NCBI RefSeq assembly: GCF_003334255.1
Contig: NZ_QOWU01000101.1
Reading direction: 5' to 3' (one strand)
DNA: 6,464 bases
Source: Escherichia coli
GTDB lineage: Bacteria > Pseudomonadota > Gammaproteobacteria > Enterobacterales > Enterobacteriaceae
A model generated the notes under the pieces. It made no database searches. It worked only from the letters and a program-made list of their open reading frames with translations, and was not told where the DNA came from. Shown piece after piece: positions 107 to 6,217 of the stretch; positions within the stretch are counted from its first letter, which is position 1, and the number at the start of each line of letters is the position of its first letter. A program made the position numbers and the translations under genes.

Positions 107-440
107 ATTGATAACAGAGGGCGTTGCAGCGGGGTTGTCACTTAAGCGTATGGTCAACCTGACAACCCGGTGTCCTCAACGGGGAAGGAATAACCCCGCC
201 ATACTTACCGCCGCGCCATTTCGCGGAGTGCCACAACCGGAAGCGCGCGGTCGACGAAAATTTAATGACGACCTATACAGAGAGACTAACTTCGCCGGGC
301 GCTTTCGTGTTATGCCCTGACTTTTCAGGGATATATCCTTTTCAGTAAACTGTCAGTGCCGGATGCTCACCCGTGTCCGGCGCACGCACTCCACCTGACC
401 CGTGGAGAACTCCTTAATTACCAACCCTCAGGAGGGTGAA

Positions 441-524
441 ATGGATAAAAAGCAAATTGAGGCCCTGCAATCTATTATTGAAAAACAAGATGAAGCTATC
501 AGGATTCTTTTCATATCGCACTGA
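441..524 (+). CDS. Candidate 27-aa small protein (MDKKQIEALQSIIEKQDEAIRILFISH), antisense to the leftward early operon; may be the 5' part of a frameshifted gene continuing in another frame to 720
   Basis: One of the strongest translation-initiation contexts in the window: GGAGG at 431-435, 5-nt spacer, ATG at 441. The ORF ends at TGA 522-524. A second protein-like frame starts at ATG 526 and runs to TAG 718-720 (65 aa). Confidence 0.3.
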   Translation: MDKKQIEALQSIIEKQDEAIRILFISH

Positions 525-679
525 TATGATACTAAATATGCTTTCTGCATTAACGGCTGCGCTTGGTGGTACAAATACAAACGTATACCGCGAAGTTGTT
601 ATTCAACAGATAGATAAATTTGAAAAAACCATAGCAGGTATTAATGCTCATCTTGCAGAACAAGAGAAAGACCATGCTC

Positions 680-1093
680 TTATGGCAATTTCTTCAGTAG
701 CTCTCCCGAAAGTTGAGTAGTTTTAATTGTTGTTTTGAAATAATCACTGCTTTCACATTTGAGTGATTTCATGGCAATCCAAATGCGGGCCTCTGTGCCT
801 GCATTTGGTTCCAGTTGCTGTAGACGTTTTGCGTCTTCCAAAAGTAAGGCGATAATGTGTTTCAGCTTCTCATCATTTGCTTGATTCTTGTTTTCAGTCG
901 AATTCTGTCCGCCGAATAGGCGCTTCTCTTCATACAGACCTATAAAGGCACGACGCACGTTACCGGATATAGTATCGATGGTTTCCTTTTCTACAGTACT
1001 CAGGTCAAGAGTCGCCAGTTGAGAGCGAACCACATTAGATGCCATTTCCTGGAATGGTACTGGTAAATCTTTAAATTCCATCGTCAACCTCAT
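680..1093 (-). CDS. Hypothetical 137-aa protein, second gene of the repressor-proximal leftward operon; no family recognised
   Basis: Minus-strand ORF whose ATG (1093-1091) overlaps the TGA of the upstream YdfA-like gene (TGATG), suggesting translational coupling. Alternative start at ATG 1081. The predicted protein is helical and charged. Confidence 0.6.
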   Translation of the reverse strand: MRLTMEFKDLPVPFQEMASNVVRSQLATLDLSTVEKETIDTISGNVRRAFIGLYEEKRLFGGQNSTENKNQANDEKLKHIIALLLEDAKRLQQLEPNAGTEARIWIAMKSLKCESSDYFKTTIKTTQLSGELLKKLP

Positions 1094-1245
1094 CAGTCGG
1101 AGTTTCTTGCTAACCAGCGATGCGCGCCAGCTTCGGTTTTAAACGTTTTACTTTTGGTATACGTCATCGCGGTAAACGTGCCGTCCTGGTTGGGAAACAC
1201 GCCGCATACCAGAGATTCGCTGTTGCCAAGATCGATAGTATCCAT
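1093..1245 (-). CDS. ydfA: YdfA-like small protein (DUF1391 family), 50 aa
   Basis: The internal ATG at 1245 is preceded by GAGGT with a 5-nt spacer. The product MDTIDLGNSESLVCGVFPNQDGTFTAMTYTKSKTFKTEAGAHRWLARNSD matches my recollection of E. coli YdfA, the first gene after dicA in Qin. The 114-aa upstream extension in the ORF track has no SD and starts inside a hairpin. Confidence 0.6.
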   Translation of the reverse strand: MDTIDLGNSESLVCGVFPNQDGTFTAMTYTKSKTFKTEAGAHRWLARNSD

Positions 1246-1509: not shown

Positions 1510-1929
1510 CTATGATGCGTTTTGTGCTTTCTTTTTACGGATTTCTTCGTAGATCATATTGTAATACTGTTTTTTCTCTTCAAGAGTTTTTAATAATTTA
1601 TCCGCTTCACTTTCTGGCAGTTCGTCTAAGAGATCTAAAAAAATACGTTGTCGTGGCGTTAGAACCCTTGTTTCATAACTGGAGGCTGTGTTCGTTGATG
1701 ATGAAACGATACCATCCATCCATCCCCGGGGTAACCCAAAGGACTCTTCGATAATCTCCACCATATCATCAGCGATCCGTTTTTTTCCCTTTTTCCCCTC
1801 TGGGTACAACATTCTTGATACATAAGAAGGCTCGCGCCCGATCTTTCTGGCCACGTTAACCGCTTTACCATCGCATTTCTCATCACGAATTTTGATGAGT
1901 TGCTGTCGTCTAAATTCATATTTGTCCAT
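1510..1929 (-). CDS. Prophage repressor, 139 aa: CI-type HTH N-terminal domain with a DicA-like C-terminal region
   Basis: Complete ORF, divergent from the Cro-like gene. HTH segment AVNVARKIGREPSYVSRMLYPEG. The C-terminal LTPRQRIFLDLLDELPESEADKLL resembles the DicA C-terminus (LSPKELELLELFNALPESEQ as recalled). The ATG at 1929 sits 6 nt after a TATTAT -10 candidate, consistent with a leaderless mRNA. Confidence 0.85.
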   Translation of the reverse strand: MDKYEFRRQQLIKIRDEKCDGKAVNVARKIGREPSYVSRMLYPEGKKGKKRIADDMVEIIEESFGLPRGWMDGIVSSSTNTASSYETRVLTPRQRIFLDLLDELPESEADKLLKTLEEKKQYYNMIYEEIRKKKAQNAS

Positions 1930-5030: not shown

Positions 5031-5344
5031 GTGGCTGGAAGAAGTGGCGCTGGGCTGAAATCCTGATACTCCGGCAGTGTGCGGGAACGATGAGAGTCGA
5101 AAGCATCGGTTATCTGATTGGTCGTAGTGAGTCAGCCGTCAGGACGAAAGCGCGGGAACTGGGTATCAGCATGATTTTACGGGGTGATTTTCACCCGTCG
5201 GCAAAATATTCACAGCGTGATATTGAGCTGGCGCGGCAACTGCATCAGCGTGGCGTACCCCGACGGGAAATTGCCGAAAAGTTTGGGATGAAGTTGGGCG
5301 CAGTGAATAACTACGTTTATTTCGACAGGAGGGTTCAGGAGTGA
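5027..5344 (+). CDS. Small protein with two HTH-like segments, about 105 aa; function unknown
   Basis: GTG 5027 overlaps the upstream TGA (5028-5030). ATG 5090 is an alternative start giving 84 aa. HTH-like segments [21 protein letters not shown] and [19 protein letters not shown]. Confidence 0.6.
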
Positions 5345-5643
5345 GGGTGAGGATTTATATCGCCGGTCCGATGACGGGATATGAAAATTTCAACCGCGAG
5401 GCGTTTCACAGGGCGGAAGATGCGCTGAAACGGGAAGGGCATACCGTTTTAAACCCGGCAGTACTTCCGGACGGGCTGACTCAACCACACTACATGGATA
5501 TTTGCATGGCAATGCTCCGTTGCGTGGATGCGGTTTACATGCTGAAAGGCTGGCAGCAGTCGGCAGGTGCAAGGGCTGAGCTGGCACTGGCGGAGAAACT
5601 GGGCCATGCGGTGATTTTTCAGGAGGTGGGCAGTGAATATTGA
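5341..5643 (+). CDS. DUF4406 protein, nucleoside 2-deoxyribosyltransferase-like fold, 100 aa
   Basis: N-terminal RIYIAGPMTGY and the later SAGARAELALA glutamate motif are typical of the NDT/Rcl-like fold. AGGAGGG at 5327-5333 precedes GTG 5341, which overlaps the upstream TGA. GTG 5347 is an alternative start. Confidence 0.75.
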   Translation: MRVRIYIAGPMTGYENFNREAFHRAEDALKREGHTVLNPAVLPDGLTQPHYMDICMAMLRCVDAVYMLKGWQQSAGARAELALAEKLGHAVIFQEVGSEY

Positions 5644-5902: not shown

Positions 5903-6217
5903 ATGACGATCACAAAACAACGAGTAGAAAAAATCATATATCGCCATGAAATGGGACTGAACAGCGATGTCACTGCCGAAGAGGTTTATGACCTGGCTGT
6001 ACTGGCGCTGAATTTATCAAATATCGCAAACCTGAAGCGATACGAGCTTGATATGGATGGTTGCGACTCGTGCGGTCAGGATTGTGGCGCAGATATGACT
6101 GAAGATCCTGATGGTGATTATGTCCTGTTTGATGACGTGGTTAAGTTGTTTGAATTTGATACAACCACTCAAAAGTTAGAAATCCCGGCAAAGGAGGCAG
6201 CCAGTGAGCAAGATTGA
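5903..6217 (+). CDS. Hypothetical acidic protein with a CDSCGQDC cysteine cluster, 104 aa
   Basis: ATG 5903 lies downstream of GGAG at 5888-5891; the track's 5879 start is a TTG. The C-terminal half is strongly acidic (DMDGCDSCGQDCGADMTEDPDGDYVLFDD). The stop overlaps the next gene's start region. Confidence 0.6.
   Translation: MTITKQRVEKIIYRHEMGLNSDVTAEEVYDLAVLALNLSNIANLKRYELDMDGCDSCGQDCGADMTEDPDGDYVLFDDVVKLFEFDTTTQKLEIPAKEAASEQD

Follow-up and report, generated by a model that had tools for sequence, protein, structure and literature searches.

The two short stem-loops H1 and H2, which lie upstream of the DicF small RNA, are best explained as stem-loops in the leader of an accessory gene on the plus strand, downstream of a weak promoter-like site. 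This explanation is tentative, and we hold it at somewhat less than an even chance. It is based on the conservation of the hairpins, on the difference between the two strands in folding, and on the association of the leader with plus-strand open reading frames (ORFs). Otherwise, the flagged elements are mostly ordinary and the finding is modest. The true processing structure of DicF is a neighbouring hairpin at 232-314.

The window, i.e., the whole stretch of 6,464 nt of Escherichia coli DNA that was analyzed, matches, with 100% identity, a lambdoid prophage that is integrated beside yccA in E. coli JE86-ST05. Its early-left operon is located on the minus strand and runs into DicF; dicB lies to the left of the window. 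The ORFs of the operon belong to DUF1391 and to unknown PHROG families, and about 570 nt without translation separate the 134-aa ORF from DicF. The features of the locus are as follows:

54-106 (about), minus strand: DicF small RNA (Rfam RF00039, 70.1 bits; the K-12 dicF annotation aligned to 106-54)
106-426: conserved non-coding "DicF leader", equivalent to the K-12 ydfC-dicF intergenic region
232-314, minus strand: long DicF-precursor hairpin with the RNase III cut (20 pairs, 292-314 with 232-254)
441-720, plus strand: accessory ORF of phrog_18692 (92 aa if intact)
680-1081, minus strand: 134-aa ORF of the early-left operon
1093-1245, minus strand: DUF1391/YdfA-like gene of the early-left operon
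1510-1929, minus strand: repressor-like gene of the early-left operon

An operator-like motif, TACC-N4-GGTA, is repeated at 1431-1467 and 1949-2000. It forms a 16-bp inverted pair at 1431-1467, ahead of the early-left genes, and three sites are located between the divergent repressor-like (1510-1929) and Cro-like (2030-2311) genes.

Palindrome, octamer repeat and hairpins

The elements in and next to the flagged interval 316-407 are the following:

315-330: hairpin H0, CCCTGA-CTTT-TCAGGG, which was not part of the first-pass annotation
321-328, plus strand: first copy of the octamer CTTTTCAG, which includes the -35-like hexamer TTTTCA (322-327)
329-338: 10-bp palindrome GGATATATCC, a minority allele in the spacer of the candidate promoter
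338-345, plus strand: second copy of CTTTTCAG, which is exact because of a single extra T
346-351, plus strand: -10-like hexamer TAAACT (TAAGCT in some relatives), with a predicted start at about 355-358, the foot of H1
356-383, plus strand: hairpin H1 with 11 bp and a 6-nt loop (356-366/373-383; core GCCGGA/TCCGGC, 358-363/376-381)
389-407: hairpin H2, CTCCAC-N7-GTGGAG (arms CTCCAC/GTGGAG, 389-394/402-407)
424-443, plus strand: ribosome-binding region (inverted repeat ACCCTC/GAGGGT, AGGAGG at 430-435, ATG at 441)

The palindrome, both octamer copies and the hairpins H1 and H2 were found exactly at the positions given by the first-pass annotation. Chance expectations were derived from 5000 dinucleotide-preserving shuffles of the segment 300-430 (131 nt). 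A palindrome of at least 10 bp occurred in 9% of the shuffles and the window contains five, and, thus, the palindrome is not unusual. A direct repeat of at least 8 nt within 40 nt was seen in 3% of the shuffles, which is marginal. No position of the block varies more than base 332 in the middle of the palindrome, where all four bases occur among the relatives. The extra T of the second octamer is missing in about 88% of the copies. Among 152 copies anchored on H1 the palindrome was present in about 20%, and the palindrome together with the exact repeat in about 12%, showing that both are allelic accidents. No second copy of GGATATATCC was found in the window when one mismatch was allowed. A transposon footprint was rejected, with the repeat exact in about 12% of the copies and the palindrome present in about 20%. 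The palindrome and the exact octamer are accidents of lineage without a role of their own; they would represent one allelic state of the spacer and the -35 region of the putative promoter.

It is highly improbable that a dimeric protein binds the DNA of the inverted repeats or of the palindrome, e.g., as an operator. The symmetry of the elements would fit, and a GGATATCC core is present near H1 in other flank families as well as in an 18-nt inverted repeat of the prophage locus L061. However, the elements are unlike the TACC-N4-GGTA operators of this prophage, which speaks against the operator proposed in the first-pass annotation. In addition, the palindrome occurs once in the window and has the most variable base of the block at its centre, and the half-sites are 18 and 13 bp apart from centre to centre, which is not a helical repeat.

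The hairpins H0, H1 and H2 are modestly in excess over chance and are conserved. Three perfect 6-bp hairpins were present where 0.2 were expected (P about 0.01, shuffles of 300-430); the whole window has 26, a rate of 0.5 per 131 nt. The loops of H1 and H2 both carry CTSACCCGTG (366-375 and 395-404). In 41 distinct sequences H1 was paired in 98.8% of the cells and H2 in 90.6%, and H1 is the most widely common core of the module. The top of H0, GACTTTTCA (319-327), is invariant in the 41 distinct aligned sequences; one compensatory pair (C-G to U-A) was seen in three sequences, and the majority allele does not form the two outermost pairs. With 41 minus-strand and 28 plus-strand variants, covariation was close to zero for either strand, as the copies are too much alike.

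Several further candidates were considered for this stretch. An intrinsic terminator was rejected, as a scan of 1-1500 gave no call on the two strands of 316-420, where the hairpins have the tails GCGCACGC and AACTCCTTAA. A small peptide on the minus strand, in the frame MVIKEFSTGEVECVRRTRVSIRH, was also rejected: K-12 no longer has the start, TAG codons arose in frame twice independently, a loss of the stop was seen as well, and most changes alter the amino acid. In phage phi367 the depositors annotated a 37-aa leftward ORF (L129:1520-1633) that runs through H2 and H1; the stop of this ORF and the start of a PAPS reductase gene overlap in an ATGA. The frame is broken in several E. coli copies, and, thus, the ORF probably does not represent a gene. 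On the minus strand, i.e., in the early-left transcript, H0 reads CCCUGAAAAG, which resembles the lambda boxB GCCCUGAAAAAGGGC. A nut site was nevertheless rejected, since H0 has a 6-bp stem and a 4-nt loop rather than a 5-bp stem and a pentaloop, its outer pairs are broken in most alleles, no boxA-like CGCTCTTA was found on reading 316-440, and the operon has no N gene. A search of Rfam 15 on both strands, at the gathering threshold and at E values up to 10, returned DicF only and nothing overlapping 316-440. No paper was found that assigns a role to 316-407 or prints the H1 sequence, and one K-12 small-RNA survey has no entry at the flagged stretch.

Folding of the two strands and processing of DicF

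The two strands differed in their folding. The plus-strand RNA 312-426 had a minimum free energy of -38.5 kcal/mol (z -5.0), and 0 of 200 shuffles were as good, while the minus-strand RNA had a z of only -1.5. H1 alone formed its 11-bp stem on the plus strand (-19.8 kcal/mol, z -4.4), compared with 6 bp and a 12-nt loop on the minus strand (-11.7 kcal/mol, z -0.36). The consensus fold reached -20.1 kcal/mol on the plus strand versus -11.8 on the minus strand. Five successive extension pairs of H1 exist on the plus strand only; three of them are G.U, and the pairs are kept in 33-41 of the 41 variants. By our own estimate the chance of such an extension is about 0.007 per strand. The RNase III hairpin 232-314 served as an internal control and showed the opposite signature: its wobble pairs form on the minus strand only, e.g., U.G 312-234 in 42 of 51 sequences. 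In a non-homologous variant leader, in which H1 is followed by an alternative second hairpin, the fold was again significant on the plus strand only (z -4.9 versus -1.2). H2 and H0 are equally stable on both strands, both strands of the K-12 allele fold about equally well, and transitions in the stems favoured the plus strand by only about 6 to 3.

The 106-426 block was matched in 4316 of 5426 complete E. coli genomes, with up to eight copies per genome. The leader was aligned for 99 distinct copies with DicF as anchor. Conservation was about 99% at 106-270, the region 270-290 was variable, and 290-426 was conserved to 80-90%. The whole 315-426 block is absent from about 15 of the 99 distinct DicF leader sequences (types E and F).

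RNase III generates the 5' end of a 190-nt DicF and RNase E generates the 53-nt species, a finding of Faubladier 1990 that has been confirmed, and no internal sense promoter was found (Ragunathan 2023, PMC10448788). The published RNase III cut at K-12 1649244/5 (PMC10448788) aligns to 243/244 of the window, and the RNase E cut that forms the DicF 5' end is near 105/106. Both cuts are outside of 316-407, which contains neither an RNase III nor an RNase E mapped site, and the flagged elements are located 70-165 nt upstream of the RNase III cut. RNase III/E processing at these elements on the minus strand, as expected by the first-pass annotation, is therefore unsupported. A site for RNase III would call for a long duplex of about 20 bp; H2 and H1 have 6 bp on the minus strand, and H1 with its 12-nt loop is too short for RNase III. 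The 20-bp duplex is the hairpin 232-314, the 20 pairs of which are conserved in 51 distinct sequences and the loop of which is the variable region 270-290. As the RNase III cut lies in this hairpin, the expected processing structure exists, but it adjoins the flagged interval. The fold of the entire 387-nt minus-strand precursor gave no significant long-range structure (z -1.36).

The locus, the leader, the RNase III hairpin 232-314 and the RNase E-made DicF 5' end are the same as in the dicBF operon of Qin (Faubladier 1990; Ragunathan 2023, PMC10448788). In contrast to these processing elements, the flagged ones are short stems with the best fold on the opposite strand, and the papers assign no role to them.

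The hairpins could nevertheless act in the minus-strand early-left transcript, as folding insulators, as 3' protective stem-loops after the RNase III cut, or in the setup of an RNase E site. Transcripts containing ydfA vanish in the absence of RNase III and accumulate upon inactivation of RNase E (Ragunathan 2023, PMC10448788), which would be in accordance with such a role. The elements lie in the long untranslated DicF leader, the hairpins are kept in K-12-type copies without a plus-strand ORF, and the equal stability of H2 and H0 on the minus strand would also fit. RNase E prefers RN/WUU, and the ACAGUUUAC that follows H1 on the minus strand offers a candidate site AG/UUU at about 350. However, H1 was no better than shuffled sequences on this strand (z -0.36), 312-426 had a z of -1.5, the mapped cuts are elsewhere, the module was found without DicF at the gathering threshold, and some DicF leaders lack the 315-426 block. 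Taken together, a role in the early-left transcript is regarded as unlikely.

Some observations were made on the neighbourhood of DicF. Within the 190-nt DicF precursor, 130-226 (minus strand) is 77-82% identical to the annotated "dicF-like region" of the phages P1 and P7, which is located just downstream of the C1-controlled Pban promoter, and 115-237 is also common to several Stx2c and cdtI phages. About 30-57 nt to the left of window base 1 there is a promoter-like TTAACA-16-GAGAAT (9/12; L002:2944-2971, K-12 L003:3045-3018). It lies between dicB and dicF on the window plus strand and is directed through DicF in antisense, but the count of such promoter-like sites was not above chance. A DicF-pattern search of genome contigs yielded only two stray metagenome-assembled genomes and no cross-genus set.

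The leader in front of accessory genes

K-12 is homologous as far as about 426. Many prophages remain homologous beyond this point, via AGGAGGGTGAA and up to the ATG of a plus-strand ORF, and this ORF differs between phages. Fourteen unrelated ORF families (at least 40 aa) were found behind the same leader and Shine-Dalgarno sequence, and the ribosome-binding region is common to these unrelated ORFs up to the ATG. The slot is, thus, occupied by one of fourteen cargo families or by none.

In the window the slot contains the ORF 441-720. It is intact (92 aa) in E2348/69 and frameshifted in the window by one extra T in the T-run 507-510. The PGAP annotation of the identical JE86-ST05 record kept only the 3' part (490-720), as a hypothetical protein. 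All relatives reached via the 92-aa ORF are 94-100% identical. The PHROGs of the 92-aa ORF and of a 77-aa plus-strand ORF are listed as "unknown function", and NCBIfam and PADLOC gave zero matches for the five plus-strand ORFs tested. The terminator scan called none downstream of 720. At 779-808, within the 134-aa minus-strand ORF and about 60 nt past the stop of the plus-strand ORF, there is a 12-bp inverted repeat (CCAAATGCGGGC/GCCTGCATTTGG, 92% complementary) without a T-run.

Morons are accessory genes with their own expression signals that are inserted in conserved operons, as known from HK97/HK022 comparisons. The genes behind the leader are similar: they are small ORFs without known function, they are variably present in close relatives and oriented against the operon, they have a strong ribosome-binding site, and 14 cargos share one slot. 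In contrast to morons, the conserved part is here a common leader with two stem-loops, and the copy in the window has only a candidate promoter and showed no clear terminator.

The module was also found in more distant phages. H1, H2, the Shine-Dalgarno sequence and an ORF are present in phi367, phiSTEC1589 and PhiR5_2. No DicF was detected at the Rfam gathering threshold in phi367 and phiSTEC1589, and PhiR5_2 was checked by pattern only. In the prophage locus L191 a diverged DicF-like sequence (6016-6066; Rfam 28.6 bits, below the gathering score) is present at the usual position relative to H1, and, thus, some loci counted as lacking DicF may hold divergent relatives.

In a weight-matrix scan of 520 nt, TTTTCA (322-327)-N18-TAAACT (346-351) ranked first among the sigma-70-like sites of the plus strand. 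Its -35 is part of the first CTTTTCAG, its spacer contains the palindrome, and its -10 abuts the second CTTTTCAG. The score was 9.5, and 10.4 with the 17-bp spacer of the relatives; 12-22% of the shuffles reached such a score, and a stricter 9-of-12 scan called no promoter on the plus strand. The site is at the identical place in every variant with the block. Variation is seen in its spacer and in the six bases that follow the -10, but the two hexamers are conserved. The promoter at 322-351 and the start at about 355-358 are therefore candidates that were predicted from the sequence. The promoter half of the first-pass proposal survives in this weak site at the octamer and palindrome; the hairpins are unlike the operators of this prophage, and their position downstream of the site suits a transcribed leader better than a promoter or operator.

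In the favoured explanation, 316-407 would be a non-coding stretch near the outer end of the conserved DicF leader, and at this joint lambdoid prophages would place small accessory ("moron") genes opposite to the early-left operon. H1, H2 and the Shine-Dalgarno sequence would form a leader of about 85 nt (approximately 357-440) that is reused before many unrelated small ORFs. In the window the leader would probably start at about 355-358, from the weak sigma-70-type promoter at 322-351. Stem-loops at the 5' terminus shield E. coli mRNAs from attacks of RNase E that need a free 5' end. H1 would then be a 5'-terminal stem-loop with this effect, and we infer a stabilising role for it. The 5' UTR of ompA is a known example of a 5'-terminal stem-loop that stabilises an E. 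coli mRNA. Likewise, H1 is a stable hairpin 0-2 nt from the presumed 5' end and is followed by an unstructured stretch and a ribosome-binding site. In contrast to ompA, the 5' end is here only predicted, and H1 is also found downstream of ORFs in other prophages.

Pairing within the leader was also noted. The H1 loop carries UCACCC, the complement of a GGGUGA that is located between Shine-Dalgarno sequence and AUG (366-372 versus 434-439). The H2 loop (395-401) is complementary to 434-439 in the majority allele only (CUCACCC); the window has CUGACCC. The local inverted repeat 424-429/432-437 can also mask the Shine-Dalgarno sequence. The complementarity between loop and Shine-Dalgarno region is not kept in leaders of the phiSTEC1589 type. 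Translational control via loop pairing or Shine-Dalgarno masking is possible, judged from these complementarities.

In about half of the copies, K-12 Qin among them, the hairpins are retained and are followed by ydfC instead of a plus-strand ORF. In the loci L061, L069, L086, L192 and L213, H1 comes 25-46 nt after the end of a plus-strand ORF, and in P13374 H1 lies between two leftward genes. These positions downstream of ORFs or between leftward genes indicate that a role in a 5' leader is not the whole story. In L061 an 18-nt inverted repeat (AATCTGGATATCCCCAAC, 5047-5064 and 5555-5572, 89% complementary) brackets a 490-nt segment with a 114-aa plus-strand accessory ORF, and its left copy comes after a perfect TATAAT. 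The GGATATCC core recurs about 16-18 nt before H1 in an unrelated flank family.

The hairpins could alternatively mark the ends of plus-strand RNAs, as a 3' stabiliser or weak terminator for genes to the left, or, where H2 is replaced, as part of an antisense small RNA of about 62 nt. The ORFs that end shortly before H1 would be explained by this. In addition, in L047, L191, L109 and similar prophages H2 is swapped for GACCACACG..CGTGTTGGTC followed by the T-run of TCCATTTTT (equivalent to about 386-430), the variant that folds with the z of -4.9; H1 together with these elements looks like a plus-strand small RNA of about 62 nt with a terminator. The top of the alternative hairpin is inverted between two variants (CGCTGTCACG versus CGTGACAGCG). 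REP elements stabilise mRNA 3' ends, and the H1 arms GCCGGATGC..TCCGGC resemble them. We take H1 to share with REP elements these arms, the intergenic position and a possible protection of mRNA, and to differ from them in that it is shorter (28 nt), has no inner G+C stem or GTAG/CTAC tail, occurs once in the window and is prophage-borne. However, the window has no plus-strand ORF to the left of H1, neither H1 nor H2 is followed by a T-run, so that no terminator was called, and a terminator right before a Shine-Dalgarno sequence and an ORF would block the expression of the latter. A function at RNA 3' ends is thus considered improbable.

It also has to be considered that the stretch has no function of its own, i.e., that it is a joint of recombination which travels with DicF and the accessory genes, and that recent common ancestry has kept the hairpins as chance inverted repeats. 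The copies are 90-100% identical, so that their conservation proves little, the covariation is not significant, the excess of hairpins reaches only P of about 0.01 while 6-bp stems are common in the window, and the palindrome and repeat are clearly accidental. Against this, H1 persists as a unit in at least five flank combinations and in distant Stx phages, although the flanks are swapped. H2 can be exchanged for another hairpin at the same place, and in L213 it is a perfect 9-bp stem. In PhiR5_2 a deletion and a substitution rebuild the inner extended stem of H1. The absence of any function is therefore rated as rather unlikely.

A further reading goes beyond the accessory-gene leader and is similarly on the unlikely side. 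It sees a conserved antisense transcription unit in leaders of the dicBF type, in which a promoter at approximately 322-351 would give rise to an RNA with H1 at its 5' end. This RNA would extend into a hypervariable accessory slot or, in some prophages, terminate as a small RNA of about 62 nt. Such a unit could also set the DicF and DicB output of the lysogen, through convergence with the early-left transcript or through pairing to it.

DicF and DicB are toxic inhibitors of cell division in most E. coli, and the way in which the dicBF operon is kept silent continues to be studied. Even without an opposite-strand role of the module, it holds that palindrome and repeat may be disregarded and that the structure for DicF processing is the hairpin 232-314. 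The main value of the analysis is that attention is moved to this RNase III hairpin and to a possible antisense unit in the dicBF leader. If the opposite-strand unit is true, it would represent a reusable expression leader for a family of unknown accessory genes of prophages, and it would add an antisense layer to the control of dicBF.
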